From IMG/VR virus record IMGVR_UViG_3300028581_000028, positions 20,314 to 84,313 of that record: a stretch of 64,000 bases of DNA. One strand, given 5' to 3'. Under the pieces are notes generated by a model. It saw only the letters and a list, made by a program, of their open reading frames with translations, was not told the origin of the DNA and did not search any database. The position numbers and the translations under genes are program-made. Position 1 is the stretch's first letter, and each line of letters opens with the position of its first letter. This document shows positions 5,185 to 63,172 of this stretch, piece after piece. This stretch comes from a virus.

Positions 5185-5269
5185 AATAAACAGTTTTAAT
5201 TAAACCTTTTATTGAATAAACAATTGCGGTAGTAAATTATTAATACCGCATTATTTAATGTTTTCAAAG

Positions 5270-5455: not shown

Positions 5456-5458
5456 AAT

Positions 5459-6052: not shown

Positions 6053-6096
6053 AATTATTTGTTTTTAAAATATATAAATTGTGTTACCTTATTTTT

Positions 6097-6741: not shown

Positions 6742-6745
6742 ATTA

Positions 6746-7165: not shown

Positions 7166-9158
7166 GAGCTTTTAATTGTGAATAATATAATTGTCCAATA
7201 ATATCATTAAAATCGGGATGTTTTACAATTTCGGGTTCGCCTTGTTTTGTTCTTTCTACCGCAGTCAGTAAAAAGCCCAGCAATGCGTAAAAATATTTTA
7301 TGTACTCTGACCTTTTCTCTTCCCATAACGCAAACTTACTAATTTTTGATTCATCATCAAAATTAATAAACATCGTTAAGTTATTCTCCGTGTAAATGAT
7401 TTGTTTATCAACAACCAAGCATACATTATGATTATCGTTAAAAATAGATACCCCCAGCCAGTTAGCACCCTCTTCAGCGTAGGATATTTGTGTGTTTAGT
7501 AAATTAAGCACCCCTAATTCTTTTAAACAGTCCGCTAATATTGACTTGTAAGCTATTTCTGGATCAAAATAATCTGGGTTTATATACTGTACATAACGCA
7601 ATAAACTCTTGGCTACTTCCCGATCTAAATCTTGCAATTCCTTTACGGTAATATCTGGGATTTCGCTTTGGGTTCTTCCACTATATTCGTTAAGATACAA
7701 TAACGATCTTTTTAACGCTGGAGTTAAATGACTACGCATAAAAGCACCCGTGTCGGCTGGATATACGTTATAATTTCTAAACTCTTCTGCAATTTTAATA
7801 AATACTTTAAATGCAAGAGATTCAAATAATTCCCCAGTATCTGCTCTGGGTTCGACCAATATTAAATCCTTAGTATTTACCCATCCAGAGTTAATTTTTA
7901 AGTTTGGATCATTAATTTTTGTAATATTATCCAGCCAAACAAAATTGCCACCGATCCCGTTTTGTAGACCGTTGTATGGATTACCCCAAGATATGTACTT
8001 AGTGCCAATTATTCCAGAATACCCCTCTTGTTTATCATTAAGATACTCTACTTTATCGCCATAAGTTGCAATTTCGCCTCTTAGAAATTGTTCTTGATCA
8101 TCCCAGCCATTATAAGATAATACATAATATTTGTTTATATCCGAATCAATATCGTAAGCGTACCCAATAGCACCGTTGTTTTTATGATTATGCTTTACAA
8201 CAACATAATTCGGAGCTTTAAAATAAATATCATCCTCAAACCAAAAATCGCCTTTGGGCTTATCGTTTGGATCGGCATATATTACAGTAACATTTGCCCT
8301 TTGTTTTTCTGTTTTTTGATTTACAAAATTAACAAGTGCGTAATGTTTTTGATCCCTACTAAGAACGGAATCCCCAATGGTTACAAACGCATCTGGTCTA
8401 ATATAAACATCCTCGCCATCAATGTTTACAAGAAAATTAGCCTTTTGTTGACCAATTTTTTGTTTATCTAATATGCAAGTTTTACCAGCATATTGCCCGT
8501 GAATTATATAGCCAGTAATCTCGTTTTCTTTTTCATCTTCTCCTTCGCCTTGACCTTCTCCCTCGCCCTCTCCTTCACCTTGACCTTCTCCCTCGCCCTC
8601 ACCTTCACCCTCACCTTCTCCCTCTCCTTCACCCTCACCTTCTCCTTCGCCATTGCCTTTTCTTTTACCCTTTCCTTTTCCTTTGCCAGAACCACCACCT
8701 TCACTTTCGCCATCATCTTCTCCAGAGTCTTGACCTTCGTCATCGCCCTCGCCTTGATCTTCGCCTTCTCCTTTGCCCTTTCCTTTTCCTTTACTTTTTC
8801 CTTTACCAGTACCTTTACTTTCGCCATTATCTTCGCCAGAGTCTTGACCTTCTTGATCGCCTTCTCCCTCGCCTTGACCTTGACCTTCTTGATCGCCTTC
8901 TCCCTCACCTTGACCTTGACCTTCTTGATCGCCTTCTCCCTCACCTTGACCTTGACCTTCTTGTTCTCCCTCGCCTTGACCTTGACCTTCTCCATCGCCA
9001 TCTTGACCGCCTTGACCTTCTTCGCCACCCTCAGAACCACCACCACCACCCGTACCGCCTTCGGTCTTGGGGGCTTGACCTTGTTCTGTAGTTTTCTCTT
9101 CTGGATCGAGTCCGACTGTTACAATTTCGGGATCGTTATTTTCATCATTCTCTGCCAT
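7149..9158 (-). CDS. Large protein with Gly/Glu/Gln low-complexity N-terminus
   Basis: 669 aa; QEGQGQGEGEGD and (GE)n repeats. Confidence 0.75.
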   Translation of the reverse strand: MAENDENNDPEIVTVGLDPEEKTTEQGQAPKTEGGTGGGGGSEGGEEGQGGQDGDGEGQGQGEGEQEGQGQGEGEGDQEGQGQGEGEGDQEGQGQGEGEGDQEGQDSGEDNGESKGTGKGKSKGKGKGKGEGEDQGEGDDEGQDSGEDDGESEGGGSGKGKGKGKRKGNGEGEGEGEGEGEGEGEGEGEGEGQGEGEGEGEGQGEGEDEKENEITGYIIHGQYAGKTCILDKQKIGQQKANFLVNIDGEDVYIRPDAFVTIGDSVLSRDQKHYALVNFVNQKTEKQRANVTVIYADPNDKPKGDFWFEDDIYFKAPNYVVVKHNHKNNGAIGYAYDIDSDINKYYVLSYNGWDDQEQFLRGEIATYGDKVEYLNDKQEGYSGIIGTKYISWGNPYNGLQNGIGGNFVWLDNITKINDPNLKINSGWVNTKDLILVEPRADTGELFESLAFKVFIKIAEEFRNYNVYPADTGAFMRSHLTPALKRSLLYLNEYSGRTQSEIPDITVKELQDLDREVAKSLLRYVQYINPDYFDPEIAYKSILADCLKELGVLNLLNTQISYAEEGANWLGVSIFNDNHNVCLVVDKQIIYTENNLTMFINFDDESKISKFALWEEKRSEYIKYFYALLGFLLTAVERTKQGEPEIVKHPDFNDIIGQLYYSQLKALENAI
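8535..9060. repeat. Coding tandem repeats (6-bp and 36-bp units)
   Basis: Three near-identical 36-bp units (ccttgaccttgaccttcttgatcgccttctccctc) plus a duplicated GQDSGED..GKGKGKGK block. Confidence 0.9.
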
Positions 9159-9167
9159 ATCAATATT

Positions 9168-12100
9168 TTATTTTTTAGATTCCATTTTTTCACGAATCAA
9201 CTTAAACGTATTATAATAAGGTTCAACCGAATTTATGGTAAAATTGGTATAATCGCCACCGCTTAATTCTCCGATTATGTTTTTACCTTCTTTTATTTTA
9301 ACCGTATAATTATTAAACGAACTCATCGTATATTCTCTTTCTCCATTACGAGATGCCCTATCATCATCGGACATATAATCACGAATATACTCATTCTTTG
9401 TGCTGGTCTTTAATTTGCGATATATTTGAGTAAACACCCATAATCTGCGTAACCTCTCGCCCAGCCTTTTATCATCGGTCATTGCCTCTCGATCTGTAGC
9501 AAATACAGTACTCCGTTTAGCTTGTTTGTAAACGGAATCCCGATTATCTATGCCAAATTGCTTTAACAAATCGGCTATACTTATTTTACTGGCTTTTTTA
9601 ATCAGCTTTTCGATATGTTCGGGGCTATCTTTTGTTGGCTTTGGCTTATCGCTGGGAGTTGCTTTTTTGCGAACAACCTCAGTTGGAGGAAGCCCGTTTT
9701 TAGCCCGTAATTTATTGACCGCCCTACGAACATCCTCGTAGTATTCTTTAGATACAAATTTATTACCCTCTCTGCCAGTAGCCAAAACAACCTCTAATTC
9801 AGCAATTCTGGTTAATGCCTTTTCCTTATTTTTATCTGTAGAAGCACCGCTTGTTTCTGGTTTTGTTTCGGCTGGTTTATCCGTACCCTTTACTCCTTTT
9901 TTAAGAATTGGCACTTCGGTTTTTAAGGCTATTTTATGTGCCTCTTCATAGCTCATATTTTCGTAAACCATTAACTCGAACTCAGTAAGCTCGTGCTTAA
10001 TAGTAGCCTCTCTGCCAACCGCATCCAAGTCTTGATCGATCCAAATTTCGTTTTTGGGAATAAATTCGTAATCGCTTGATACAAAATGGTGACCGCCCAT
10101 CGTAAAGTCTGGGTAGTGTTTTAAATTAACATAGTTTCTGTTTACAGAATAAATGTAAACCTTTTTATTTCTGATTGGAACTACTTTAATAAGTACGGTA
10201 TTTAGTCCATCTTCGGGCTTTGGGGTTTTCGTTTTTAAAACCTCAACAAACCATTTATTTTTATCGGGAATATATTCAAACCCTACTTGTTCGGCTAATT
10301 CTTTTAAATTACTGTAAGTTTTTCCACCGTAAGTAAATCCGCCATCGGCTTGTGTAACAACCCCATAATATTCTTTTAAATAATTACGCAATTGGTTGGC
10401 GGTATACCATTTGCCTTCCGCATTTTCTTCTGGTTCGCCATCCTTTTCGCTTTGGGCTGATGCCTCGCTGGGCTTTTGCTCTGGCTTTTTAGTTGGCTTT
10501 TCTGGAGTTGGAGGAACTGCATCTGTAAGGTCGTTCAGTTTTTTAACAAATATCAGCATATTTAAAAACTGGGTGTCCTCCTCCTTGTTTTCTTTAGGGA
10601 AGAATATTTTATCAAGTGCAGTATTTACGATCTCGATGTTTTTATCCATCAATTTACGGTCTACAGTTATATCATAGTTTAAATCTTCTGAGAATTTTTG
10701 TTTTACTAAATAGCATAAAAATAATTTACAAAAGACTTCTTCGACTCCGCCAAGTTCCTTAATTGTATTTGGATCGATTCCTACCGCAATGGCATCGTTT
10801 ATGGCTGGTCTTCCAATAAGGTCTGCTATAATATGCCCAAGCTCGTGCAATAACGGTTCTGGTGTTGTAGATTCGAATAAGTGAATTGTGTACTTGCCAT
10901 CTTCCGCCAACTCGATTGCACCATCTGGCTTATTGGTAGGGATGCCATCAAGCTCAAAATCATCAAAAATAACTGATACTTTATCGTCATCGATTGACTC
11001 GGATGTCATTGGCAATAAGTACCCAGCAAGTTCAACTTCCGACTTTGAGCTTTTTTGAACCTCCCTTGATTCTACCTCGCCAAGAAGTGCCTCGTATGTA
11101 TTAAAAAATATATTTGATACTTGTTGCTCCGTATAGCCTTGTCCCAGCATCCTATTGGCAATAACTCCAGCGTCCCTCATATATCCAAAAACCGTATCCA
11201 TTTGTTTTAACATAACATCACCGAAGTACTTGTTAAGGCTATCGAGTTTTGCATTATCCAGCTTTTTTAACACCACCATCATATTAGCGTTCAAGTGCAA
11301 CTCCATTAAGCCATCAACGACCATTTTAGTATTTTCGTAATATGCTTTATCGTTATCGGGCTTGTACATTAACTCAACCGCCATTTGTCCGAACTTGGCA
11401 AAACAGTCTTCCAGTATTACATTGTATTTTTCAGCACTATAAAGCCCTCCGCTTTTAGCATTTCTGGTATATATGTCTATGATATTTTTTAAAACGTAGA
11501 AGTATTTTTTAATATTCTCGCCACCGATTGCTTGGATCATTTTTGCGAGAAATTGATTGCCACCAGTACCAAATCCCTCAATGCGTTGGATTGCGTGTTG
11601 TACCTCGTGAAGTAATACCGTTTTTAAATCATATAATTTGGGATTGCCAAATATCATTATATAATTTAACTCTGGGTTGTAATAAAACGAGTACATCTTG
11701 CTATCTGTAGTCGCAAAAAATATTGGCAAATTAAATAATTTGGGATAATGCTTGTAAAGTGTTGGGTGTTGAAGAATATCGCTTAAATATGTATCCCAGC
11801 CCAATTTTAAATACTCCTCCATTAGCTTTGTAGCCAATTTCCCAGCGTCTTTTGTGGGTACTAATTTTAGTATATTATAAATTTTCGTTGGGTTGTCATT
11901 AACATCAAATCGGCTTCCGTGTTTAAAATAAACATTTGGGGTGTCGTAACTTGGAATAGTCATATCTGCATCCAAAATCGGCTTCCGCCATTTATAATCA
12001 AAGCGATTAAAGTACCAGCCAGTCTTTGCATAAATATCGCTGATAGATAACTTATTTCTATACATATCCTTTGCCTCTTGTAGTTGGGAATCGGCTGATA

Positions 12101-12755
12101 ATAACGCTGATTTTTCGCCAACGTAAAAGTATCTTAACTTATTAATGGAATCGGGGATAAGCCCTCCATCTGGATTCCTTACCGCCATTAATATTTTACT
12201 TACACACTCGCCATAAAACGATTTTCCAGTTTTTGTTTTGTGAAAATGGTCAAGGTTATCGGCAATTGCAATAACTGGAGTCATTACATATTCGGGGATA
12301 TAAAGAAAGCGGTTTAACGCATCTATGTAGTTATCCCGACTATAAATATTGAATATATTATTGAATGTAGTTTCTTGAAGTTTGCGGTTTATGTTTTGTA
12401 AGTCGGTTTTTTTAGCCTCCAAAAAAAATTCGATCAGTTTCTTTTTATGTGCCTCACTTGTTTTGCCATAATAGTAATCCAGTAACCGATAAAACAATGT
12501 GTTTTGAGTGTCAAATGTCGATTGAAAATAGCCTAATGAATAATAAACCCCGTCTTTGTTATAAGGGTTGTTTTTATAAATACTCATCAATATTCTTGGT
12601 ACGATTGCGATGTTTTTAATATCGGTAATTCTGCTTGTTGTATCATCGTACCAGTAAAAAAATGAAATATAATTGCCTTCTTCCAAATTCTTAAATTCGG
12701 CTGGTAAAAACGCACCTATTTCTGTATTTAAAAGGTCTTGTATGGTGATTTTCAT
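9168..12755 (-). CDS. Large polyvalent protein (LPD23-like plus zincin HExxH domains)
   Basis: AKDM..DIYAKTGWY..DYKWR (LPD23-like); LLHEVQHAIQRIEGFGTGG; LLHELGH; IKHELTE..YEEAH. Confidence 0.7.
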   Translation of the reverse strand: MKITIQDLLNTEIGAFLPAEFKNLEEGNYISFFYWYDDTTSRITDIKNIAIVPRILMSIYKNNPYNKDGVYYSLGYFQSTFDTQNTLFYRLLDYYYGKTSEAHKKKLIEFFLEAKKTDLQNINRKLQETTFNNIFNIYSRDNYIDALNRFLYIPEYVMTPVIAIADNLDHFHKTKTGKSFYGECVSKILMAVRNPDGGLIPDSINKLRYFYVGEKSALLSADSQLQEAKDMYRNKLSISDIYAKTGWYFNRFDYKWRKPILDADMTIPSYDTPNVYFKHGSRFDVNDNPTKIYNILKLVPTKDAGKLATKLMEEYLKLGWDTYLSDILQHPTLYKHYPKLFNLPIFFATTDSKMYSFYYNPELNYIMIFGNPKLYDLKTVLLHEVQHAIQRIEGFGTGGNQFLAKMIQAIGGENIKKYFYVLKNIIDIYTRNAKSGGLYSAEKYNVILEDCFAKFGQMAVELMYKPDNDKAYYENTKMVVDGLMELHLNANMMVVLKKLDNAKLDSLNKYFGDVMLKQMDTVFGYMRDAGVIANRMLGQGYTEQQVSNIFFNTYEALLGEVESREVQKSSKSEVELAGYLLPMTSESIDDDKVSVIFDDFELDGIPTNKPDGAIELAEDGKYTIHLFESTTPEPLLHELGHIIADLIGRPAINDAIAVGIDPNTIKELGGVEEVFCKLFLCYLVKQKFSEDLNYDITVDRKLMDKNIEIVNTALDKIFFPKENKEEDTQFLNMLIFVKKLNDLTDAVPPTPEKPTKKPEQKPSEASAQSEKDGEPEENAEGKWYTANQLRNYLKEYYGVVTQADGGFTYGGKTYSNLKELAEQVGFEYIPDKNKWFVEVLKTKTPKPEDGLNTVLIKVVPIRNKKVYIYSVNRNYVNLKHYPDFTMGGHHFVSSDYEFIPKNEIWIDQDLDAVGREATIKHELTEFELMVYENMSYEEAHKIALKTEVPILKKGVKGTDKPAETKPETSGASTDKNKEKALTRIAELEVVLATGREGNKFVSKEYYEDVRRAVNKLRAKNGLPPTEVVRKKATPSDKPKPTKDSPEHIEKLIKKASKISIADLLKQFGIDNRDSVYKQAKRSTVFATDREAMTDDKRLGERLRRLWVFTQIYRKLKTSTKNEYIRDYMSDDDRASRNGEREYTMSSFNNYTVKIKEGKNIIGELSGGDYTNFTINSVEPYYNTFKLIREKMESKK

Positions 12756-12756
12756 A

Positions 12757-13080
12757 TTATACTATACTTGCCAATATTTGTAAATCGTTAAAAAACCCAA
12801 CGTAGCACCCTTGCTTTGATTCAAAGTCTGGGGATAATTCACCAGTATTTACATCAAAAGCATAAAGTCCGTATCGTTTATCCGATATTGAATAATTATG
12901 ATAAGTCAATACTTGTGATACAACAAAAACATAATTTTTTATCTTATCGTTCACCCCTAATTCGTAATTACTTTCGACCTTATACGTTCCCTTCTCTGGA
13001 AGAGGTTTCAAGGATTCTTGTAAGTTTTTATCAAGGATATAATCGATAATTTTGTCCCTTATTTCTTTTTTAATTTCCAT
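12757..13080 (-). CDS. Hypothetical protein
   Basis: ORF in operon. Confidence 0.55.
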   Translation of the reverse strand: MEIKKEIRDKIIDYILDKNLQESLKPLPEKGTYKVESNYELGVNDKIKNYVFVVSQVLTYHNYSISDKRYGLYAFDVNTGELSPDFESKQGCYVGFFNDLQILASIV

Positions 13081-13086
13081 ATTTTT

Positions 13087-14343
13087 TTATCTGTATTTGG
13101 AACAATCAATATCTTGTCTTTTTGGTTCTTCGCTTGGATCGGGAGGTAAAAACTCGTAGCCCATTTTAGCCAAGATCTCTTTATTTTTAGTTTCGGCATT
13201 ACAGATGATCCTTTTGAGTTCGTTTTTAGAGTCCTCAATAGATTTGATCTCCGCACCTCCTAAGAAATAATAAAGCGTATCTTTTTCTGTTTCAAGATTC
13301 CCTTTTTTCTGCTCTCGATATAATGTTTTTTCAAAAGTCTGTTTACTTGGCATACTTCCTAAACTGGTATCATACTCATCATCGAATAAGTATTGTTGTG
13401 CCATATAGTAACTAAATTGCCTTATTCTGAAAAAACTCGGATCGGCTAAAACGTAAAGCAGACTCAAACTATCCATTGTTTCTGTATAGTCTTTTACGTC
13501 CATAATATTAAAACGATGTCCGTATTGGCGACTGCCATCGAATTTTAAATTAGAGTTGCTTAATCCAATACAAGCAGTTAAGCGTACCGAATACCCTACC
13601 GACTCCAAAAAGTTAGCACATATTACTGCAGTAACCCCAGCCCAATAGGTTTTTTCTCCCCAGTTTTGCCCGACTAAAATAAATAGCCTTACTGCCCGAT
13701 TCGGTCTTGGAAGTTTTTCTTTAAACAAAAACGACTTTTTATTGCTACTGTTAAACTGTTTAACCCCATCCTCTTCCAGTATGGTTAAGACCGCCTCACT
13801 GCCATCAAGATTTAACTTAAATAACAACTGCCCTTCTTTATTTGTCTTTTGTTTTTTATCAGCATCAAATACCTCAACACCCTCACCCAGACCAAAATAT
13901 CTATCGTGTTTTTTACTATACAATGCTGGAGTTTCATCCACTTGCATCATTGCACGTTCAAAACTAAACACTCCGATCTCTTTATCCGTTGGCTTAATAA
14001 CTTCCTTTGGGATAATACCTTGCGATACCTTTTCCAGCATATTTAAGTAAGGAGATAATTCTAAATAAGCCATATTGTACAAAGGCATATTCATAAAATA
14101 TTTCCTTGCCATTGCTTCTTCGTAGTCTGTTGGCAAAGGCTCTCCGTATGCTATAATATTGGAAGCGGTAGCACCAGCCCTTAAACTGTTATTAACAGAA
14201 TTAGGACGACTTTTGATATACGATCCATAACTGGAACGCTGGGTGTCGGCTTTTGCTTTTTCGCAAATCTTATCCCAGTAGTTACAGTAATCGTGTACTC
14301 CCTTAAATTTGATTATCGTTCCTTTTACACTATAGGATGCCAT
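13087..14343 (-). CDS. VWA-like partner of AAA+ ATPase
   Basis: Adjacent to the AAA+ gene; FLESVGYSVRL..VKDY..LADPSFFR pattern of degenerate VWA proteins; no clear MIDAS motif. Confidence 0.5.
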   Translation of the reverse strand: MASYSVKGTIIKFKGVHDYCNYWDKICEKAKADTQRSSYGSYIKSRPNSVNNSLRAGATASNIIAYGEPLPTDYEEAMARKYFMNMPLYNMAYLELSPYLNMLEKVSQGIIPKEVIKPTDKEIGVFSFERAMMQVDETPALYSKKHDRYFGLGEGVEVFDADKKQKTNKEGQLLFKLNLDGSEAVLTILEEDGVKQFNSSNKKSFLFKEKLPRPNRAVRLFILVGQNWGEKTYWAGVTAVICANFLESVGYSVRLTACIGLSNSNLKFDGSRQYGHRFNIMDVKDYTETMDSLSLLYVLADPSFFRIRQFSYYMAQQYLFDDEYDTSLGSMPSKQTFEKTLYREQKKGNLETEKDTLYYFLGGAEIKSIEDSKNELKRIICNAETKNKEILAKMGYEFLPPDPSEEPKRQDIDCSKYR

Positions 14344-14374
14344 TTTTTCGAGTATTTATTTTGTAAACCGTAGC

Positions 14375-15679
14375 TTACGATTGAGCTTCTGCTTTAGTTT
14401 CTTTTTTCACTTTAACACCCTTGTAGTCGATTCCTCTAAGCCTTACAATATCGGCATTAAATTGCGACACGGATGTTTTTTCAGCCTCGCCCAATATAGT
14501 AGCTAAATTAACCATATTATCGCCCTCAAGCGATTTAAACTGGGCTGTATTTTTAAGGTTTGTAGCTCGATCTTTTGCTAAATCATCAACAAAAGACATA
14601 ATGCTATCTTTTAATGTTTTACCACCAACAAAGCCTTGTCTTGGATCGGGATCAGTTCCTACTGGAGCAAAAGCCAATGGGCTTCTTAGTTTACGAAGCA
14701 TTTGCATTTCGTAAACACGGTTAAAGTTTAACATTGATCGGATAGTGATTGCCTCAACGCTATCTTCCGTTTTCTGTAAAAAGTCTCTCAACCCTTGACT
14801 GATGTTATAAACTGCCTTGTATGTAAGCGAGTATTCGAGTACTCTATCTTCCTTAATTTCGTAAAAGCTTCCAACAAAACGGTCAACCAGCGAGTAGTCT
14901 TGTCTGTTATTTCCAGAGAAGTTACCGCTTGTTGTTTTCATATTGGTATTCCCAGCACCTATAACCATAAAGTCTGGATGTTTTGGGATCGCCTCACCTC
15001 TTCCAGAGGTTAAAATAGCACCCTCATCTGCCGACATTGATAAGGCATCGTTTAAAAGACCAGCAGTATTTGGATCAAGTTTTGGCAATTCATCGATAAT
15101 AAATACTGCACCGTATTTCCACGCCAACTCCATCTGCCCCTCTGTATAACCTCGTATGCTAAAACCACCAACGATTTGCATCGGAGATGTCCATTGGCTA
15201 CAGTTCAAAATATAGTACGGAGGAATTGGCTGGTTTGGATTTGGCGATTTGGAATCGGTTTTTTTATTGGCTTGATATGATCTATTACAATCCTTTGGAT
15301 CGCCCAGTAAATATTTTGCGACATTTTTTGCCATTACTGTTTTACCAGTTCCAGCCTTGCCCCAGAGGTAAACATTATTTTTAAGTAGCAAGTCATCGCA
15401 TATTTGCTTAAACACTCCTTGATTAGTGTTTATTTTACTATCGCAACTGCCTTGTTCCCCTTGTTTCATTGGGTTTTTTGGGATATTGGAACTTTGCGTT
15501 GTCCCAGTTGCAGAAGTCTCTCCTTTTGCCATAATTAAAGTTTTAAGATTTGTATCTAAATTTTCATATTTTACTTCTTTGTTGGCTAATTCTTTTTGAA
15601 TAGCCTTGCTGATTAATTCTTGTTGAGTGATGTGTTCACTTTTCAACTCATCCAACAATTCTTTTACTGCGTCTGCCAT
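14375..15679 (-). CDS. MoxR/CbbQ/CobS-like AAA+ ATPase
   Basis: Walker A GKAGTGKT, Walker B FIIDE, LLNDAL, HPDFMVIGAGNT, DYSLVDRF. Confidence 0.9.
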   Translation of the reverse strand: MADAVKELLDELKSEHITQQELISKAIQKELANKEVKYENLDTNLKTLIMAKGETSATGTTQSSNIPKNPMKQGEQGSCDSKINTNQGVFKQICDDLLLKNNVYLWGKAGTGKTVMAKNVAKYLLGDPKDCNRSYQANKKTDSKSPNPNQPIPPYYILNCSQWTSPMQIVGGFSIRGYTEGQMELAWKYGAVFIIDELPKLDPNTAGLLNDALSMSADEGAILTSGRGEAIPKHPDFMVIGAGNTNMKTTSGNFSGNNRQDYSLVDRFVGSFYEIKEDRVLEYSLTYKAVYNISQGLRDFLQKTEDSVEAITIRSMLNFNRVYEMQMLRKLRSPLAFAPVGTDPDPRQGFVGGKTLKDSIMSFVDDLAKDRATNLKNTAQFKSLEGDNMVNLATILGEAEKTSVSQFNADIVRLRGIDYKGVKVKKETKAEAQS

Positions 15680-15689
15680 ATTACTGTTT

Positions 15690-18600
15690 TTATAATGATT
15701 TTAATTTAATTATAAAGTCTTGTGCGGTGTCCCAATTTAAAGGAATTTTCACTTTTTCCCGTTCCTCTTTGCTGGATGTTTTTACTTGCTTATCATCGCC
15801 ATTATCATCGCCATCTTCATCGCTTGGTTTAGAGGCTTTATCAATGTTTTCGGCAATAACTTGACCAGCATAATAGGAGTCAACCAGTCCGATTGCATAA
15901 CTTGGCGACACCCCAATGGTTTCTTGGGCTAAAGATTCGATGCCAATATAATCATCACCCAGCTCTTTAACCTTATTTATAAAATCAATTTTAACCGCTT
16001 CGTCCCCAATAGTATTAAGGATGTTTACTACCGCTTTCCTTTCGGTAATATTTGCTGGTACTAAATTAAATAAGCTACATTGTATAACAGATAAAGCGAA
16101 CCTTAACGATATCATCCCATATTCGTTTTCTGGCACTTCTCTAAAGCTGTTATCGATATAATCTGGGGGAGTATTTTCTCCAAATGGTAATAATGGGTAG
16201 TAGTCGTAAATTCCCTCTTCTGATTTTTGTTCATCCTTAAACTCGTACATATCCCTACCCTTGTAGATAATATAGTCGTTATCGCCATCTTTTGATTTAA
16301 TTTCCATTAACACCTTAAACTCAGCATTAAAATAGTTTAGCAAAGACTTAAGTTGTTGTGTTGATGTGGAATCTATATTAAAGGTCAAAAATTTCATTTT
16401 AAAGAAATATTTTGGCGATCCAGCAGATAACATATCAACGGTGCGGTAAATTAACTTACCCTTTTTACCGATTATATTTTCAATTGCCTCAGATATTTCG
16501 GTTGTGAGATAATCAGACAAGTATAATTTATTGGGCTTTTTTAATTCTTTGTCTTTTCCTACTGTATAAATCCCAGTACAGAGGTTAAAACTTATTGCAC
16601 CATTTTCATCTCTTAAAAAGCCTTCGTTTTTAGATGGCAACCATATCCATTTTAGTTTTTCAATCGCCATTAACTGCTCTATAAATCTTTCGCTGTTTAT
16701 AGCCCCGAAAACTGGAGTAAATCCATCGGACACCTCAATATATTTACCCATCCATAACTTGATCCCAGTTTCAACCGTACCAGCAATGGTCGAGTATTTA
16801 ATTAGCCTCTTTTTACGTTTATAATTTGCGTTACCGCTAAACATATCTCCAGTAACCTCAAATGCTTTAAATAGCTCCCCAGTAAGTACTCGCATCCTAT
16901 CTCTTTCGTCTGACTTCTGGATTTCCCAAGCCTTTGCCATTGCATCTTCCTTCTGCGATATGCTTCCGCCCATTATCCAGTCGATAATATTTTGGTACTG
17001 GGAAGTTAGAGTCATTTTTAAATGAGGTCGTATTTTAGACAAGGATGCGATTTCAATCTCAAGGTTCATTGGCGAAAACTTGTTATCACTTTTACTTAGC
17101 GATTTAATACCAACAACAACTCCAACCCCGTACTGAATACTTTTTCGTTTAGTGTCCGACTCCCAAGCCCCATCCTCAAGAATATCAATATCAAAAGGCA
17201 CTTGTACTGGTCTGTTTGGGTAGAACCAGATCAGCGTATTTTTTATTTTCGCAAATTTCAATGTTGCTTTACTTACCGCATCGGCAATTAATTGGCGATG
17301 ATTGGCGATAATCTCTTGTTTTTCATCATCTGATTCTGCGTTGGATGTATCAGCCTCTCCAAAAGATTTGGCTATACTAATCAACCTTTCGTCAACGTAT
17401 TTGCCAAAATCGTAAATTAAATTATTATGATTTGCCCTATGATCTTTCGATCCAGCGATCAAATCTTTTGCGTCACTAAGCTCCTCTTTACTGTATGGTT
17501 TGCCTTTAGGGGTTACCCATTTATCCTCAATAAATACAGACTTAGTAAATTGATTTTCGTTATTGCCTCTGAATAAAACTTTTTTGTTTCTGGTCGATGC
17601 GTTAATATCTTCCATCGATGTTTCCAAATCCCAATCATCCGCCTCAATAAAGCGTTTTTTAAGTTTTACATAATAAGCGTTCATCCTATCGTAAAAACTC
17701 TCTTGATTGGCTATTTTCTTTGTTTCATCTTTTTCGTTAAGATCTCCGCAAGGCAATTTCTCCAGTTCACGCAAGTAATTTTCAAACTTTTTATCTTTAC
17801 TTCCGCCCTTTTCATACCAGTCGTTATTTTCATCCAGTATAGCTTTATAGCCCTCGTTACCAGCTTCCTCTAAAAACTCGATTAATGCTATGTAACCGTA
17901 TTTATTTGCCATATCCTCAATCTCGTTGCCCTCAATATCGAGTATTTGAGATGCCTTCTCGGATTGTCTTACGTTCCCAGTAGTATTTGCGTCCAATGAC
18001 CGCAGTTTTCTACGCAACATCATCAGCTTTCTAATCTCGCTTGGGATCGTTGATACAACGTACATATAGGATGGGTTGTTTACTTGACCAGTTCTATTGA
18101 TCCTACCCCATTTTTGCACTTCGGTAGCTACATCAAGCTCAACTTGATGAATTACCATTACTCTTGGTCTTTTATCGATATAATCAAGCTTCGAGTGAAG
18201 TGATATCCCAGTACTTCCAGCAGTATTTAAAATAATAACATCGGATTTTCCAGCGTTAAACCTTGCGGTTTTATCTGTAGCCGATTCCTTTTTAATCGAA
18301 ACTATCTCAAAACGTCCATCTGGATCGGGTATTGTTTTATTACCATCAGCATCAACGAGCTTTAATGGGATTATCGCCATACTTCGTTTTGTCACCTCCT
18401 CAACGATAAACTTCTTTTCTTTGGTGTATTTATCGTCCCAGCTTTCACGGTAGGCATTTTCTATTTTTTGCACCATCGCATCAAGCGGTGATAACGGTAA
18501 ACCAGATGTTGCCCTTTTCATTTGTGCTACCTTTTCGGCATACAAAACTCCGTTATCAGCGTAGTCTTCATCTTTAATGATTGCCCGTGCTATAACGATC

Positions 18601-54254: not shown

Positions 54255-54288
54255 TTACAAAGGTTATTAGCTATATAAGATGTTATCG
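54255..54288 (+). other. Putative attI-like cassette insertion site
   Basis: Lone GTTATCG core (G at 54282) with no preceding hairpin; its flank pairs with the R'' end of cassette 1. Confidence 0.5.
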
Positions 54289-54293
54289 GCAAC

Positions 54294-54980
54294 CTAAAAA
54301 GACAGCGTACCTTGTTTGATACTTTCTGAAATTCGTTTGATTGCCTTGTCAATATATTCTTTGTCGATTTCAACAGCGGTTAAGTGTAAATTCATTTTAT
54401 CTAAACGGTTGGCTTTATCAACTGCCAAAGCTATTGAACCGCTCCCGAAATGGGTGTCTAAAATCTTTGCGTTTAGTTCAGCATATTTTGTAATTACCCA
54501 ATCATATAAATCAATTGGTTTTTGCGTTGGGTGTATTTTACCATTTTCGCTCCTGCTTAATAGTTTCTTTATTCGAGTAGGTTTTTTAAATGAAGTCCAA
54601 GCCATTTCACCATCTGCAAAACTCATCCCCTCACCTATCATTTTATCCCATATTAAAAAACATTTTGCACTTCCTAAGTATTCTAAAAAATAGTTTCCAC
54701 CCCAAATAATCTGATTTTTTGAAACGCGCTTCAGTTGTTCAAAATATTCATTGTTTGGCGTTGCATTATCCCAACCCTTTGTTTTAAATTGTTTAAAATA
54801 TGTTCCGCTTGTTTCAATATCAATTCCATAAGGAGGGTCAACAATAGCCAAATCAAAGTATTTATCAGGGTATTGCTTCATAATTTCCATACAGTCAGCG
54901 TGGAAAAGAGAAAGAAAAGGCAGCCGATAACACTCGCTATACGCAAGCTGGGGTGTAGTGGTATTTTGAAGGTCTGTCAT
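54294..54980 (-). CDS. Cassette 1: N6/N4 DNA methyltransferase (beta class)
   Basis: VDPPY, HPTQKP, LDTHFGSGS; ATG lies in the attC1 loop. Confidence 0.9.
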   Translation of the reverse strand: MTDLQNTTTPQLAYSECYRLPFLSLFHADCMEIMKQYPDKYFDLAIVDPPYGIDIETSGTYFKQFKTKGWDNATPNNEYFEQLKRVSKNQIIWGGNYFLEYLGSAKCFLIWDKMIGEGMSFADGEMAWTSFKKPTRIKKLLSRSENGKIHPTQKPIDLYDWVITKYAELNAKILDTHFGSGSIALAVDKANRLDKMNLHLTAVEIDKEYIDKAIKRISESIKQGTLSF

Positions 54981-55053
54981 TTTAATTTAGTTTTGTGTAA
55001 TTTGATACTTTTGCGCTTCTAAACCCCGCCAGCGCATAGCGGAAACGTTATAA
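54925..55053 (+). repeat. attC-like site 1
   Basis: CGATAAC..CGCTATACGCAAGCTGGGGT / ACCCCGCCAGCGCATAGCG..GTTATAA. Confidence 0.85.
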
Positions 55054-55131
55054 GCAAGCTGGCAGACGTGCTTCGATTTAACATTTCGGTTGAAAAAATT
55101 AAAATAAAAAAGCCCACGCACATCAGTTTTT

Positions 55132-55827
55132 TCAAAACTGTAAGGTTTGTTGTATTGCATCATAATTAGTTTTGTTGTTTGACCATATTGCTTCCGTTGT
55201 TTTAAACATAGCACCTTGCATATCTACCATTGGTTTAAATGGCAACCAATCAGCTTTAGTGTTTTCACATACTATTGCTTGTCCATTTCTATCTTTGCAC
55301 CATTCAGCAAGTTTTTTAAAGTCAATTTGTTTATTACTGCACTTGTATTCGTGTCCACCAAATTGATATGGTGGGTCTATAAACCAAGTTGCTTCTTCGT
55401 TTTCTAAATCTTCATAACTTGCTTCCCTTATTTCCCAATGTTTAATTTTATGCAGTTGTGTAGCAACATTATTTAATTGTGTTACTATTCCATCAACAGC
55501 ATAACTACTTACCGTTTTTCTTAATCCTGTTGTTCCTTGTTGCACTATAAATCCTAAAAATATTTTTTCATCAGCACTTAAATCAAAGTTATCAAGTGTT
55601 TCCCCAAGTTTTAAAATTGGCAATTTCCTAATATCGTTTTCACTACATTGTTGTAGCCATTTCCAAGTCCTTACTATTATGTGGTATTTATCTACAAGCA
55701 AAACATCGTTCTGCCAATATTTCAAGCTATACCTTGCACTTCCAGCAAAGGGTTCAATTATCCTTTTGTGTTTCGGTGGTGGATAGTAGTCCACTATTTT
55801 TGATTTGCTTCCGTAATAACTAAACAT
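55132..55827 (-). CDS. Cassette 2: Dam/D12-like (alpha class) adenine methyltransferase
   Basis: FSYYGSK, IEPFAGSA, FIDPPY. Confidence 0.85.
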   Translation of the reverse strand: MFSYYGSKSKIVDYYPPPKHKRIIEPFAGSARYSLKYWQNDVLLVDKYHIIVRTWKWLQQCSENDIRKLPILKLGETLDNFDLSADEKIFLGFIVQQGTTGLRKTVSSYAVDGIVTQLNNVATQLHKIKHWEIREASYEDLENEEATWFIDPPYQFGGHEYKCSNKQIDFKKLAEWCKDRNGQAIVCENTKADWLPFKPMVDMQGAMFKTTEAIWSNNKTNYDAIQQTLQF

Positions 55828-55905
55828 ATTTTCCCACGCTTTTTTTTATTTTAATTTTTTCTTTAGTGCTTCGATTTGGCATTTGTGCTAAACAATCCAG
55901 CCAGC

Positions 55906-56009: not shown

Positions 56010-56240
56010 TTAAGAACCTGCGACATCACATCCTTTTCCGATTGAAAGTGATTTTTTAAATATCTCAACTTTTTGAGTATAATCATTAACAAATCCAATA
56101 GACGTTACTCTAAATGATTTTTTATTGTTTTTAAAAACGTAACGCATTTGGATAAGTTTGTAATATCCACTACTTTCAAACATTCCTACATCAAACCATT
56201 GTGATTTTTCAGGAAATAAATAATTAATTAGCTTTTTCAT
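56010..56240 (-). CDS. Cassette 3: small hypothetical protein (MKKLINYLFPEK...)
   Basis: ATG at 56238-56240 with A-rich leader; the frame also stays open into attC3. Confidence 0.6.
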   Translation of the reverse strand: MKKLINYLFPEKSQWFDVGMFESSGYYKLIQMRYVFKNNKKSFRVTSIGFVNDYTQKVEIFKKSLSIGKGCDVAGS

Positions 56241-56275
56241 TTTATATTGTTTTAAAATTAATAATAAAAACCTGT

Positions 56276-56373
56276 GCATAACCGCACCTATAAGCAATAC
56301 AGCCAATGAGCTTTAGTTGTAACTTTATAGCGTGGTGCATGGCTGTACTGCTCATAGCTGCAACACGTTAGCA
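56276..56373 (+). repeat. attC-like site 3
   Basis: GCATAAC..CTATAAGCAATACAGCCA / TGGCTGTACTGCTCATAG..GTTAGCA. Confidence 0.85.
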
Positions 56374-56415: not shown

Positions 56416-56616
56416 TTAATCTTTACTAATTTCCCATTCCTTTTTAACAAATCCAGAGAATGAACCAAATTTCTTTTTAAACTTGGATAAACACTCCTTT
56501 TTTGTTTGTCCGTAATAACTATATCTTGCCCCATTATGGAACTCGACAGTTAAATTGAACTCTTCACCGTCTTTTGGTCTTTTGCCTTTTGTACGGTCGA
56601 TGACTTTTATTGCCAT
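56416..56616 (-). CDS. Cassette 4: small hypothetical protein
   Basis: 66 aa ORF filling the cassette body. Confidence 0.65.
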   Translation of the reverse strand: MAIKVIDRTKGKRPKDGEEFNLTVEFHNGARYSYYGQTKKECLSKFKKKFGSFSGFVKKEWEISKD

Positions 56617-56778: not shown

Positions 56779-57435
56779 TTAAGAAGCATCCGTGCAACTT
56801 TGAAGCACTTCAAAACATAATTGTTCAGGGATTCTACTTCTTTCGTAATGTCCGTTTTTACCTTGCGTTCCTGTTTTTGCTCCACGTCTTGCACTTTCAT
56901 GGTGGCAATGCTTATTCATTACATTACCTTGCTTATCGTATTTGTAATTGTGGCATTCGGATCTTGGTATCCATGTTTTTGAGTTAGTCCAAATATCTGT
57001 TGGCTTTGCTCGATCATCTCCATATTGGCAGTACCAAACTGTATGCCTTTTAAATTCTTGCATCCATTCCATGTGTCTTAACATTCCACGTGGGTTTTCA
57101 ATAAAAAACACCATGTTTGGGTTTATAGCCAACCAGTCTTTTATTAGCTTAATAAAGTGTTGGTTTACGACATCACATTTTTTAGCATAATCGCTTTTAG
57201 GTTCTGTTTTATTCCTATGTGTGCTTATCGCTGCAATAGTGTATGTGGTGCAATCAGGCGAAGCCCAAACAACATCAGGAATAAAAGGCACATCTTCTTT
57301 TTTAAGTTCGCCAATATCAATCGAAAGGTTAATGTTTTCGTATTGTTCCCAATCAACTGAAAAAACATTCATTCCTAATTTATCAGCAACTTTACCAATA
57401 CTTCTCGATCCTGCAAATAATTCTAATATATTCAT
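56779..57435 (-). CDS. Cassette 5: compact C5-cytosine-methyltransferase-like protein
   Basis: LELFAGS (motif I), WASPDC (motif IV), FIENP (motif VI), YCQYG..KPTDIW. Confidence 0.8.
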   Translation of the reverse strand: MNILELFAGSRSIGKVADKLGMNVFSVDWEQYENINLSIDIGELKKEDVPFIPDVVWASPDCTTYTIAAISTHRNKTEPKSDYAKKCDVVNQHFIKLIKDWLAINPNMVFFIENPRGMLRHMEWMQEFKRHTVWYCQYGDDRAKPTDIWTNSKTWIPRSECHNYKYDKQGNVMNKHCHHESARRGAKTGTQGKNGHYERSRIPEQLCFEVLQSCTDAS

Positions 57436-57463: not shown

Positions 57464-57556
57464 ACATAACAAAGGCTATAAGCAATTGCCTATCAGCGTT
57501 TGTGGTTAATTGAACAGTATTTACAAGGCAACTGCTCATAGCCTCGAACGTTAGGT
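57464..57556 (+). repeat. attC-like site 5
   Basis: ACATAAC..AGGCTATAAGCAATTGCCT / AGGCAACTGCTCATAGCCT..GTTAGGT. Confidence 0.85.
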
Positions 57557-57574: not shown

Positions 57575-58255
57575 CTAAAACATTCGGAGTTGGCTGACAA
57601 AATCTTTAAAACGCTTTTCTTGTGCTTCATAATAATCTTTGTTAAGTTCAAAACCTGTAAAGTTGAAATTTCCTTTAGCACAAGCAATTCGGCTACTTCC
57701 TGAACCTAAATGAGTGTCTAAAATCAAATTGCCTTGCTCTGCATAATTTTGTAAAATCCAATCGTAAATATTTATATGCTTTTGGCAAGGATGTATTTTT
57801 CCTTTAAATGTATAGTCAACTTTCAATTTGCCATCAAATCCATTCATATTACCAATATCTGAAAATCGTATCATTTTACATTTGCCATCAAAAGAAGTCC
57901 ACGCCAATTCAAATTCATCAAATTCTCGTTTCCCTAAATATCCTGCTTTTATAACTGATTTGTCCCAGCATATCCATTGCCGTTTTATTGGCAAATTAAA
58001 GTAGTTTCCGCCCCACACTATTTGATTTTTAGAAACTCTAAATAACTGCTCCCAATATTCGTCTGTTGGTCTTTCTTTGTCCCATTCAGCTATTCCAATT
58101 CCGTAAGGTGGGTCAACTATTGCAAGGTCAAAATGATTATCAGAAAAGCGTTTTAAACCCTCTACACAATCCTCATTATACACCACAGAAGGCACTGCAC
58201 CTAACACGGTATTGGCAAAATTGCCGTTCTGTTTTTCAATTAAACTTTCGTCCAT
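57575..58255 (-). CDS. Cassette 6: N6/N4 DNA methyltransferase (beta class)
   Basis: VDPPY, HPCQK, LDTHLGSGS; ATG lies in the attC6 loop. Confidence 0.9.
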   Translation of the reverse strand: MDESLIEKQNGNFANTVLGAVPSVVYNEDCVEGLKRFSDNHFDLAIVDPPYGIGIAEWDKERPTDEYWEQLFRVSKNQIVWGGNYFNLPIKRQWICWDKSVIKAGYLGKREFDEFELAWTSFDGKCKMIRFSDIGNMNGFDGKLKVDYTFKGKIHPCQKHINIYDWILQNYAEQGNLILDTHLGSGSSRIACAKGNFNFTGFELNKDYYEAQEKRFKDFVSQLRMF

Positions 58256-58322
58256 AATTTCAACTTTTGTTTTTCAATTTATCTTTCGGTTCGGCAACTT
58301 CGCCAATACCCATACGTACGTT
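58199..58322 (+). repeat. attC-like site 6 (terminal, degenerate R')
   Basis: ACCTAAC..GGTATTGGCAAAATTGCCG / CGGCAACTTCGCCAATACC-CATAC-GTACGTT. Confidence 0.8.
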
Positions 58323-61045: not shown

Positions 61046-61660
61046 TTATAAGCCCAGTCTTAATTGGCTTGTGAAGTCTTTAAAACGCTTTTCTTGTGCC
61101 TCAAAATAATCATTATCTATCTCAAATCCAGTAAACTCAAGCCCAGCTTTAAAGCAAGATATTCTACTACTTCCACTTCCAAGATGTGTATCAAGAATTT
61201 TCATATTTGGTTCGGAATAATTTTTTAATATCCAGTCGTATAGTTTTATTGGCTTTTGAGTCGGGTGTAAGCGATATAACTTAGGGTTACTTCCTTTAAA
61301 TATTTTTGCCAGTTTATCGAAAGAAGTCCAAGCGTATTCACACATTGCCAAGCTAAAATCTTCTCCAATTTGCTTATCCCATATTAAAAAACAACGAGTT
61401 GGTGGTAAATCAAAATAATTACCGCCCCAAATTATTTGATTTTTAGATACACGAAATAACTCGTCCCAGTACTCTTTGGTTGGAACATTATCCCAGTCTT
61501 TATTAACTATCTCGTTAAAATTCATCTTGCCACTACTACCGCCCTTAAACTTATCGCCAATTCCATACGGAGGATCAACGATTGCAAGGTCGAAGTGTTT
61601 ATTGGTAAAACGCTTAAGTCCTTGTACGCAATCCTCGTTATAAACCATATTTACTATCAT
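61046..61660 (-). CDS. N6/N4 DNA methyltransferase (beta class)
   Basis: VDPPY, HPTQKP, LDTHLGSGS. Confidence 0.9.
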   Translation of the reverse strand: MIVNMVYNEDCVQGLKRFTNKHFDLAIVDPPYGIGDKFKGGSSGKMNFNEIVNKDWDNVPTKEYWDELFRVSKNQIIWGGNYFDLPPTRCFLIWDKQIGEDFSLAMCEYAWTSFDKLAKIFKGSNPKLYRLHPTQKPIKLYDWILKNYSEPNMKILDTHLGSGSSRISCFKAGLEFTGFEIDNDYFEAQEKRFKDFTSQLRLGL

Positions 61661-61666
61661 AATTCG

Positions 61667-62341
61667 TTATTTAAAATCAATTCTTAATTGGCTTTTAAAA
61701 TCTGTAAACCGCTTCTCTTGGGCATCATAGTAATCTTTATCAAGCTCAAAGCCAACAAATTCAAGACCAGCCATATAACAAGCTATGCGACTACTTCCAC
61801 TTCCAACGTGAGTGTCGAGAATTTTATCGCTCTCTTTAGCATAATTATCAAGTATCCATCTATATAACGTAACGGGTTTTTGGGTAGGATGTATCCTTTT
61901 TTCCTTAATTTTCATATTTTCTTGCAACATCCCAGCCCATTTGTGTTTTACTTTTCTTACTGCAGTATTGAACGAAGTCCACGCAAGTTCGCAATCGGCA
62001 AAATCTGTACCGCCATTATCTTTATCCCAAACAATCCAACACGAACTATCAAACGGAATCTTGCTTATAAAATGGTTTGCTCCGAAAATTATTTGATTTT
62101 TAGAAACCCTCATCAGTTCTTTAAAAAACTCCTCGCTTGGTGCTGATTTATCCCAATCCTTTTTTAAATAATCGATTTTTTTAGCAACACCTCCTCCCTT
62201 GCCTTGCCCTTGATTATTTATGTCGATTCCATACGGGGGATCTATAATAGCCAGATCAAATAACTTGTCCGCATACATCTCTATGCCTCGTAAACAGTCC
62301 ACATTAAAAACTCGATTATCGTAATATCCTTGTTTTAGCAT
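61667..62341 (-). CDS. N6/N4 DNA methyltransferase (beta class)
   Basis: IDPPY, HPTQKP, LDTHVGSGS. Confidence 0.9.
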   Translation of the reverse strand: MLKQGYYDNRVFNVDCLRGIEMYADKLFDLAIIDPPYGIDINNQGQGKGGGVAKKIDYLKKDWDKSAPSEEFFKELMRVSKNQIIFGANHFISKIPFDSSCWIVWDKDNGGTDFADCELAWTSFNTAVRKVKHKWAGMLQENMKIKEKRIHPTQKPVTLYRWILDNYAKESDKILDTHVGSGSSRIACYMAGLEFVGFELDKDYYDAQEKRFTDFKSQLRIDFK

Positions 62342-62539: not shown

Positions 62540-63172
62540 TTAAAAGTCCATTTTTAACTGACTTTTATGAAAATTAAACTGCCTTTTGCCAGTTTCAAAA
62601 TATTTTTTATCAATCTCGCAAATATCGAGGTTAAAGCCCTCTATATCACAAGCAATCGCAATACTCATACTCCCCCCGTGAGTATCCAATATTTTATAAT
62701 TTGGCTTACCAAAGCGTTTTAACTGCCATCTATACAAATAAATTGGCTTTTGTGTTGGATGTATTCGTTCTATTCCATCTTTTGCATTTGCCCCAACCCA
62801 GCTTTTGTTAATCTTTCGCAAAGTTCCAGCGAAACTCGTCCACGCAAGTTCGCCATCGGCAAAATCATTATCCCCAGTTCCTTTATCCCAAAAAAGCCAA
62901 GCTCCCGTTGGTTTTAAAAACTCGGTCATATAATTACCTCCCCATACGATCTGGTTTCGAGATACACGAAATAACTGATCCCAATATTCTTGAGTTGGAA
63001 TTGCATTATCCCAATCGGCTTCTCCCCGATAAATTCTTTTTCCAGTACCGAGAGTCATTTTATTTACCCCGATTCCATAAGGGGGATCGTCAATCGCTAT
63101 ATCATAGCAATTGTCTGGCTTCCCCCTCATAAATTCAATACAATCACAGTTAAAAAAATTAATTTTTGGCAT
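62540..63172 (-). CDS. N6/N4 DNA methyltransferase (beta class)
   Basis: DDPPY, HPTQKP, LDTHGGSMS. Confidence 0.9.
   Translation of the reverse strand: MPKINFFNCDCIEFMRGKPDNCYDIAIDDPPYGIGVNKMTLGTGKRIYRGEADWDNAIPTQEYWDQLFRVSRNQIVWGGNYMTEFLKPTGAWLFWDKGTGDNDFADGELAWTSFAGTLRKINKSWVGANAKDGIERIHPTQKPIYLYRWQLKRFGKPNYKILDTHGGSMSIAIACDIEGFNLDICEIDKKYFETGKRQFNFHKSQLKMDF

Follow-up and report, generated by a model that had tools for sequence, protein, structure and literature searches.

A hairpin-bearing cassette array in a viral contig

The subject of this analysis is an array of gene cassettes in the window, the whole stretch of 64,000 nt that was analyzed, which forms the final 64 kb of the linear 84-kb IMG/VR viral contig IMGVR_UViG_3300028581_000028 (estimated to be 61% complete). 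Every gene between 52 and 64 kb of the window lies on the minus strand, and from 58.3 to 54.3 kb on this strand we found six one-gene units, each with a long imperfect hairpin running from TAAC to GTTA ahead of it. The hairpins resemble attC, the recombination sites of integron cassettes. In two of the six units, which encode the N6_N4 DNA methyltransferases A and B, an ATG in the hairpin loop opens the frame of the enzyme. We consider it likely from the sequences that these are attC-type sites in flipped polarity, whose loop constitutes a portable translation-initiation region in these two cassettes. The elements of the array are given in the direction of transcription (scores in bits are those of the covariance model R1; ORF, open reading frame):

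58202-58319, minus strand: hairpin 6 (h6), followed by methyltransferase A (57575..58255); 32.8 bits, E = 3e-4
58253..58255, minus strand: ATG of methyltransferase A in the hairpin 6 loop, start of the leader MDESLIEKQNGNFANTVL; predicted unpaired probability 0.61
57575..58255, minus strand: N6_N4 methyltransferase A, 226 amino acids from the loop ATG; PF01555; in-frame GTGs after the core are alternative starts
57467-57553, minus strand: hairpin 5 (h5), followed by an ORF (56779..57435) with its own ATG; 63.7 bits
56645-56769, minus strand: hairpin 4 (h4), followed by an ORF (56416..56616) with its own ATG; 46.2 bits
56279-56370, minus strand: hairpin 3 (h3), followed by a small ORF ending at 56010, with its own ATG; 47.9 bits
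55909-56000, minus strand: hairpin 2 (h2), of a different sequence type, followed by a D12/Dam-like methyltransferase (55132..55827) with its own downstream ATG
54928-55050, minus strand: hairpin 1 (h1), followed by methyltransferase B (54294..54980); 92 bits, its sequence being part of the training alignment of the model
54978..54980, minus strand: ATG of methyltransferase B in the hairpin 1 loop, with an A-rich leader and A at -3; predicted unpaired probability 0.81
54294..54980, minus strand: N6_N4 methyltransferase B, 228 amino acids; PF01555; residues 1-21 encoded by the hairpin, conserved core from about residue 23
54282..54290: lone core at the array end with no hairpin behind it, GCCGATAAC on the minus and GTTATCGGC on the plus strand

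Both methyltransferases A and B match the N6_N4 DNA methyltransferase family PF01555 (48.2 and 49.5 bits against a cut-off of 26.7), and the catalytic motif DPPYG is present in both translations. By motif reading, the ORF behind hairpin 5 looks like a C5 methyltransferase; it has no Pfam match. The lone core is the terminal inverted-repeat partner of the cassette 5′ end GTTATCGGC (54931-54923). As a detector of such sites, the bare pattern TAAC-N40-70-GTTA was rejected because its 50 occurrences in the window do not exceed the 50.5 expected by chance, while a gapless stem scan found eight sites vs one or two per shuffled genome. An Rfam search of the hairpin region returned no family and only one chance match. 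DNA near-identical to the contig is contained in lake-water metagenomes, and its nearest cultured relatives are Flavobacterium phages, with the similarity confined to the methyltransferase genes.

The hairpins are related to attC sites of Bacteroidota

Like attC sites, the hairpins are imperfectly paired, have AAC/GTT cores on the outside and L boxes on the inside, and contain an unpaired spacer and a variable loop. Their spacers are asymmetric (5-6 nt vs 1-3 nt), unlike those of class 1 sites. We searched bacterial genomes with a pattern built from the commonest inner boxes of the hairpins and found 110 places, nearly all in Bacteroidota and the allied phyla of the Fibrobacterota-Chlorobiota-Bacteroidota (FCB) group, where the hairpins measure 118-128 nt. 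Many of these matches fall at contig ends. A sequence-only nhmmer profile detected only h1 in the window and was replaced by the covariance model R1, which was built from 48 phage and bacterial copies with h3-h6 outside the training set. R1 matched h1, h5, h3, h4 and h6, all on the minus strand, and scored far lower on the reverse strand; h2, being of a different sequence type, was not detected in the window.

In Gelatiniphilus marinus (L328, G048:C4:284001-304000, 2933-16930), R1 found at least 11 sites in a row, each located after an ORF on the opposite strand. The row starts about 2 kb from a gene for a 278-amino-acid tyrosine recombinase, the best NCBIfam match of which is the integron integrase family TIGR02249 (205.6 bits, below the cut-off of 265) and which is missing the IntI-specific segment. 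As this arrangement is the layout of a chromosomal integron, the hairpins of the window can be identified as attC-type sites, homologous to the attC sites in chromosomal arrays of Bacteroidota and the FCB group. Finders that require IntI would probably call the Gelatiniphilus array a cluster of attC sites lacking integron-integrases (CALIN). The bacterial copies (alignment A2) keep the loop motifs AACTTTTCAGTTTAGCAC ... TTTAAGCAC across Bacteroidota families, which is unusual for the 'variable' loop of attC.

The phage cassettes have flipped polarity and are joined at the cores

The strand that carries GCTATGAGCAGT is the canonical attC bottom strand in the bacterial arrays. In bacteria, the ORFs flanking the hairpin lie opposite its 'S' strand on both sides at 43 sites and, with one flank empty, at 41 more, with five phage-like exceptions. 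In the viral contigs, the flanking ORFs lie on the 'S' strand, on both sides at 19 sites and on one side at three. Since the phage genes thus occupy the strand opposite to that of the bacterial arrays, the phage attC sits 5′ of its own gene, and the canonical cassette arrangement, an ORF on the attC top strand with attC 3′ of the gene, is not found in the phage array.

We gathered h6-type sites by the 5′ arm of the hairpin alone and obtained 40 contigs with 36 parsed sites; these counts, like those for a second hairpin type, are lower bounds, as the first hairpin picker and some regular expressions were too strict. The upstream flanks of the h6-type sites fell into 32 clusters among 33, and the downstream flanks into 12 clusters, with 23 sites belonging to the methyltransferase A family. 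For the second type, all 17 of the 17 upstream flanks differed and the downstream flanks formed eight clusters. The preliminary description of this DNA had assigned each hairpin to the gene directly 3′ of it, and this holds, in that the hairpin body tracks the downstream gene and the polarity in bacteria is the opposite. The linkage between body and gene is strong for the h6 type and blurred in the methyltransferase B family.

The cassette borders also lie at the cores. All six genes of the array have their own perfect terminal inverted repeat of 8-10 nt, which extends the core (non-own pairs, mean 0.5 nt). Because these repeats are cassette-specific, every hairpin of the array is a hybrid joined in the core. 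Methyltransferase B cassettes end with a stop codon followed by GGTTGCCGATAAC, at GCCGATAAC, in 19 of 20 distinct loci, and the similarity stops right there. In two lake metagenomes (runs X4 and X7), the outer core of h5 (57553-57550) runs directly into the h2 body (from 55994) on a contig of an abundant relative, which is thus without cassettes 3-5 and has its joint at the core; the variant contig stops short of the gene beyond the h2 body. The relative is about 10-fold deeper than this phage, and its contigs diverge just beyond 58317 and 55058, the outer ends of hairpins 6 and 1. Metagenome joints between 54.5-54.9 kb and 58.0-58.2 kb were left unused, as most of them connect the two methyltransferase paralogs and are probably derived from other phages.

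Polarity is not readable from the cores, which are palindromic, and on the mRNA strand the order of stop codon, TAAC...GTTA and next gene resembles a canonical array. The hairpin might thus belong to the upstream gene, and the downstream gene might borrow its start from the attC of its neighbor, as with ORF-11 of attI1. However, the upstream context of one hairpin body differs in 32/33 and 17/17 cases while downstream genes recur, bacterial arrays of the same site family have their genes on the other strand, and the metagenome variant joins a hairpin body at the outer core to a different upstream cassette end. A borrowed start would also go out of frame with each rearrangement. We therefore give canonical polarity very little credence.

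Methyltransferases B and A probably start in the hairpin loops

Hairpin 1 spans 123 nt from TAAC (55050-55047) to GTTA (54931-54928) and comprises a 5′ arm (~55040-55023), a loop of about 69 nt (55022-54954) and a 3′ arm (54953-54935). The first nine codons of methyltransferase B are loop sequence, and the 3′ arm and the core encode residues 10-19, the arm giving P-Q-L-A-Y-S-E and the GTTA core C-Y-R. In this frame there is no ATG, GTG or TTG after the loop ATG until M31, which is past the LFHADC segment. The fold and the ORF thus bear out what had first been noticed for this gene, namely an ATG within the attC1 loop, preceded by an A-rich leader with A at -3, without an alternative start before LFHADC. 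The closest solved homolog, PDB 5HEK, aligns from its residue 2 to residue 23 of methyltransferase B (LSLFHADC...), and the 5HEK chain itself begins at the position matching this residue. Residues 1-21 are therefore an extension, and a start at M31 would drop a conserved segment, since LFHADC aligns to the start of the 5HEK chain.

Hairpin 6 has arms of 19 nt (58292-58310 and 58208-58226) that are 89% complementary. Here the 3′ arm encodes N-G-N-F-A-N-T and the GTTA core (58205-58202) V-L. The positions of the arms and the in-frame GTGs after the core agree with the earlier observation that the ATG at 58253-58255 lies in the attC6 loop and that GTG alternatives exist. The outer core of hairpin 6 is degenerate, consisting of GAAC and a 4-nt ACGT duplication (58311-58322), while about 30 other copies have TAAC; at this end of the array, the methyltransferase A cassette has probably become fixed beside the DUF932 gene. 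A direct repeat of 24 nt (58227-58250 and 58265-58288, 88%) lies in the loop of hairpin 6, and its second copy encodes ESLIEKQN of the leader.

Three tandem paralogs at 61-63 kb that are not in cassettes (61046..61660, 61667..62341 and 62540..63172) begin with MIVNMVYNEDC, MLKQGYYDNRVFNVDC and MPKINFFNCDC, respectively; as had been stated, their N-termini are shorter than the leaders and unrelated to them.

Read-through ATGs are common in phage loops and rare in bacterial ones

To compare sites, we counted a loop ATG as read-through when its frame continued for >50 codons past the core. Read-through loop ATGs were found at 83 of 138 model-detected sites in 79 viral loci, or 35 of 79 when counted by downstream family. 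None of eight short hairpins had one. In the bacterial arrays, only 3 of 141 sites had such an ATG toward the next cassette (Fisher P = 2e-29 vs phage). The loops also differ in composition, with 48% A in phages on the mRNA-sense strand and 29% A and 41% T in bacteria on that same physical strand.

The contexts of the loop ATGs are like those of ordinary starts in the same phages, with A at positions -13 to -10 and -5/-4 and hardly any G. Ribosomes of Bacteroidetes use no Shine-Dalgarno (SD) sequence, and initiation is tuned by mRNA structure and upstream bases such as A at -3 (PMC6847099). For the region from -18 to +12, the predicted RNA ensemble gave an unpaired probability of 0.81 in h1, 0.61 in h6 and 0.64 on average over 81 sites, while that of the arms was 0.05-0.15 (mean 0.08). 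These predicted properties would fit SD-less initiation of the Bacteroidetes type.

It had been proposed that the mRNA is the better-folding strand and that the hairpin may gate translation. The first proposal applies to h3-h6 and to the family, in which the mRNA strand folds better at 121 of 148 sites (mean -4.3 kcal/mol), but not to hairpin 1, where the mRNA strand is slightly worse (-32.0 vs -34.7 kcal/mol). The gating proposal is not supported, as the start is predicted to be mostly unpaired in the loop of both h1 and h6 and h1 folds no better on the mRNA. Because the start window is predicted to be mostly unpaired, the stem would expose the start and not hide it. If the stem has an effect, this would concern elongation, when the ribosome passes the 3′ arm 25-30 nt behind the ATG. 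RNA runs were rejected as evidence of expression, as they contained 0.09-0.12 of the words and came from unrelated habitats.

Relatives conserve the stem and the open frame

Upstream of the methyltransferase B homologs, the hairpins vary in sequence type, while about 100 nt after GTTA are nearly invariant. In 16 aligned hairpins, 95.6% of the cells pair and 11 of 19 inner-stem pairs show double-sided changes. None of 500 shuffles reached the observed values, and pairing fell to 29-46% in slid registers, which demonstrates covariation of the stem.

The frame is conserved along with the stem. Every methyltransferase B variant has an in-frame ATG 48, 54, 57, 60 or 66 nt upstream of the core with no intervening stop, while the other two frames across these leaders contain one to four stops. 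In one locus (L001), a difference of 5 nt after the core puts the sequence across the core into another frame, which is also that of the loop ATG. The leader residues themselves vary with compensatory changes in the stem (PAIAYST, TAIGFIP and PQIAYSE), so that the constraint is an open frame with an ATG and not a specific peptide. Two G.U (G.T) pairs are invariant on the mRNA strand. Since the bacterial copies have them too, as do h3 and h5, which are non-coding, these pairs belong to the site and not to the coding sequence.

The 5′ parts of the genes are themselves unusually conserved. Across loci, identity is 97-100% in the ~100 nt that directly follow GTTA in methyltransferase B and in the corresponding ~165 nt in methyltransferase A (window positions 54890-54931 and 58090-58205; loci L003-L024 and L081-L114). 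The proteins behind these blocks are only 54-77% identical overall, with divergence starting directly after DPPYG. This pattern suggests either that the specificity part is exchanged by homologous recombination or that the DNA is under some unknown constraint.

The leader is shared by unrelated proteins

A search with methyltransferase A retrieved nine loci that match residues 1-21 alone, the same leader running in frame into unrelated proteins. The suggestion that such leaders can serve as a protein-level tag for finding further cassettes thus works in practice. Among the h6-type sites, the leader MDESLIEKQNGNFANTVL is joined in frame to eight unrelated gene families, and in five other families, in which the gene starts on its own in an A-rich context, it stops after 20-34 codons. 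For the second hairpin type, seven families are in frame and two are not. Taking both types together, 15 of 22 contexts are in frame (P = 9e-4 vs one in three). The remaining seven contain loop ORFs of 20-40 codons that end near the gene's own start; the two cases in the window are in-frame fusions. In the fused proteins, Pfam domains start at residues 25-33, at profile positions 1-7, and include C5 methylase, MT-A70, radical SAM and PAPS-reductase-like domains.

Starts of this kind are also annotated in a cultured phage. In Flavobacterium phage filifjonk9-1, the GenBank coding sequences gp12, gp10, gp09 and gp07 begin in such loops, and gp12 and gp07, which are different genes, have the common leader MNTNKTQAEQLPQDAV. 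A further annotated coding sequence of this phage, gp06 (VALCLFAPC...), lies inside an h2-like hairpin (L132, 2733-2837) and is probably not a real gene.

The loop ATG might nevertheless be unused, with translation beginning behind the core, methyltransferase A using a GTG and methyltransferase B a non-AUG codon such as the CTG of codon 20 or, truncated, M31; the loop ORF would then be at most an upstream ORF that is in frame by chance. The GTGs directly before VYNEDC in methyltransferase A, the paralog N-termini of 4-10 residues and the seven of 22 contexts with a short upstream ORF in the loop and the gene's own start would be in line with this. However, methyltransferase B has no ATG, GTG or TTG before its core, and M31 would remove LFHADC, the segment aligned to the start of 5HEK. 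In addition, neither the five different leader lengths nor the one frame shift disrupts the frame, the leader is in frame in 15 of 22 independent contexts, and Pfam domains begin right behind the leaders. We regard an unused ATG as improbable; the loop ATG is presumably the start that is actually used.

The preliminary description had called the recombination site dual-coded. Covariation of the stem, the kept frame, the fusions, the GenBank starts and the frequency of read-through loop ATGs (60% in phages vs 2% in bacteria) all support this claim at the level of sequence.

A proposed portable initiation region and its possible recombinase

In the mechanism that we propose, the six hairpins would be attC-type sites of a Bacteroidota/FCB integron variant, and the cassette genes of the phage would occupy the bottom strand of the bacterial attC. 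The mRNA would thus carry the version of the hairpin that usually folds better, and the large A-rich loop would be a portable initiation region in two of the six cassettes here and at about 60% of related phage sites. A ribosome would begin at the ATG exposed by the loop, read through the 3′ arm and the GTTA core and go on in frame into the enzyme, and the protein would gain a leader of 17-24 residues, the sequence of which is dictated by the hairpin. Hairpin and gene would move together, crossing over at the outer core, and the frame would therefore survive the shuffling of cassettes.

If the sites are still recombined in the phages, as their joints suggest, the recombinase is probably a short IntI/Xer-like enzyme of the host and occasionally of the phage. 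Only one related contig (L103, 5307-6759) contains such a gene, which encodes a 276-amino-acid recombinase 39% identical to the Gelatiniphilus enzyme. It is located 1.2 kb downstream of a methyltransferase A cassette beside a NinG-like gene, and a copy of an N-terminal fragment is also present. Three other candidates were rejected as neighbors of hairpins: the G056 recombinase is on a different contig from the hairpin, and the true IntI genes of G059 and G060 are about 90 kb from the hairpins or on other contigs.

Several observations weigh against a mobile initiation module as set out here. Neither TIGR02249 nor PF00589 has a match on the 84-kb contig, which is 61% complete by estimate, and none of the 43 related records has a recombinase above the IntI cut-off; a complete integron is thus not found on this contig, and the array would be classed as a CALIN. 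P12002L_attC1 of Polaribacter phage P12002L, the sole site of such a kind to have been assayed, was not recombined by IntI1 (PMC9892861). As for the starts, methyltransferase A could begin at an in-frame GTG after the core, and the CTG at codon 20 of methyltransferase B would give an N-terminus as long as that of the paralog at 62540..63172. The methyltransferase B homologs come from about 20 related viral contigs, whose loci are related and not independent samples. In this family the identity of the hairpin body correlates weakly with that of the gene (r = 0.19) and also with that of the upstream sequence. The h6-type hairpin body was found with 12 different downstream sequences. Body and gene are thus not strictly linked, and homologous recombination clearly acts as well.

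Some of these points would also be expected if the phage hairpins no longer recombine and are RNA modules that insulate, process or stabilize the mRNA and present the start, the genes being shuffled by homologous recombination. The absence of a recombinase from the contig and from most of the relatives searched, the inactivity of P12002L_attC1 with IntI1, the two G.U pairs invariant on the mRNA strand, and the heavy mosaicism with its ultra-conserved 5′ gene blocks speak for such modules. However, similarity breaks at or within a few nt of the TAAC/GTTA cores in dozens of loci, cassette-specific terminal inverted repeats make hybrid cores in every hairpin of the array, and a natural metagenome variant is joined at the core. 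The G.T pairs occur in bacterial attC too, where that strand is not transcribed in the sense direction. We judge it unlikely that the hairpins are RNA modules only, and favor recombination sites that also carry the start.

On a broader and more tentative reading, about which we are undecided with a slight lean toward doubt, phages of Bacteroidota maintain their own pool of integron cassettes in flipped polarity. In this pool the attC loop would have been exapted as an SD-less start module giving position-independent expression, the cassettes would mostly encode DNA-modification enzymes against host restriction, and short IntI/Xer-like recombinases without the IntI insertion would mobilize them. 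We found no description of such recombinases as integron integrases. More speculatively, the shared hairpin-encoded leaders might also act as a common protein tag.

Other features of the array

A perfect 20-nt inverted repeat (55092-55111 and 55842-55861) lies on both sides of the D12/Dam-like methyltransferase cassette, and outside it is a 30-nt direct repeat (55068-55097 and 55866-55895, 77%); the 3′ flank of this cassette recurs in locus L018. A 98-amino-acid ORF with a TTG start (56010-56306) begins within hairpin 3, where an ATG near 56240 (MKKLINY, with an A-rich leader) is the likelier start.

Relation to known systems

The attC sites are normally regarded as non-coding DNA structures behind promoterless genes. 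In the literature we found no published account of attC loops that give the start codon and the N-terminus of their own, inverted gene. One structure would here apparently have three roles, as a recombination site, as an mRNA element that displays the start and as N-terminal coding sequence. Three constraints on about 120 nt would make a natural case for studying overlapping structural and coding selection. Such a structure would explain how shuffled cassettes without start signals of their own can be expressed, and also the odd common N-termini that gene callers assign to related phage proteins. The leader peptides or the covariance model provide a handle for finding anti-restriction cassettes in phage metagenomes, and the sites point to an integron variant found throughout Bacteroidota, one that would be labeled as lacking an integrase by finders based on this enzyme.

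In sedentary chromosomal integrons, such as that with the Vibrio cholerae repeats, near-uniform attC sites are found on many unrelated genes. The phage sites are alike in that one near-identical type occurs on unrelated genes and similarity ends at the inner core; in the V. cholerae-type arrays, however, the genes lie upstream on the top strand, IntI has its specific insertion and the loops are non-coding. In T4-type phages, promoter early stem-loop (PeSL) cassettes are repeated intergenic stem-loops with expression signals between shuffled accessory genes. The PeSL cassettes differ in that they are thought to move by homologous recombination, supply promoters and not start codons, and have neither AAC/GTT cores nor cassette-specific terminal repeats.

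Phage CALINs with orphan DNA methyltransferases and no integrase, including that of Polaribacter phage P12002L, have been published (Qi et al. 2023, PMC9892861). The terms 'start codon' and 'translation' do not occur in that paper, and the 'divergent directions' in P12002L are left uninterpreted. Like the hairpins of the window, P12002L_attC1 runs from TAAC to GTTA and lies between two methyltransferase genes (gp36 and gp35).

Hairpins of attC can form in mRNA and affect the translation of the next cassette, and short ORFs in attC can relieve this barrier (Jacquier et al. 2009, as summarized in PMC8876359). As far as this summary describes them, these sites differ from the phage sites in that attC is 3′ of its own gene, the top strand is transcribed and the short ORF does not provide the cassette protein with its N-terminus.

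In attI1 of class 1 integrons, a short ORF across the crossover (ORF-11, ORF-18 or ORF-17) aids cassettes without start signals, and N-terminal fusions of this type are known for aac(6′)-Ib (PMC8876359). What attI1 ORF-11 shares with the phage sites is a recombination site that holds a translation-initiation region. It differs in being located in attI, once per integron, in acting mainly by termination-reinitiation coupling and in using an SD sequence, whereas the start of the phage sites lies in the attC loop of the cassette itself, is found in many cassettes, is usually fused in frame to the gene and has no SD sequence.

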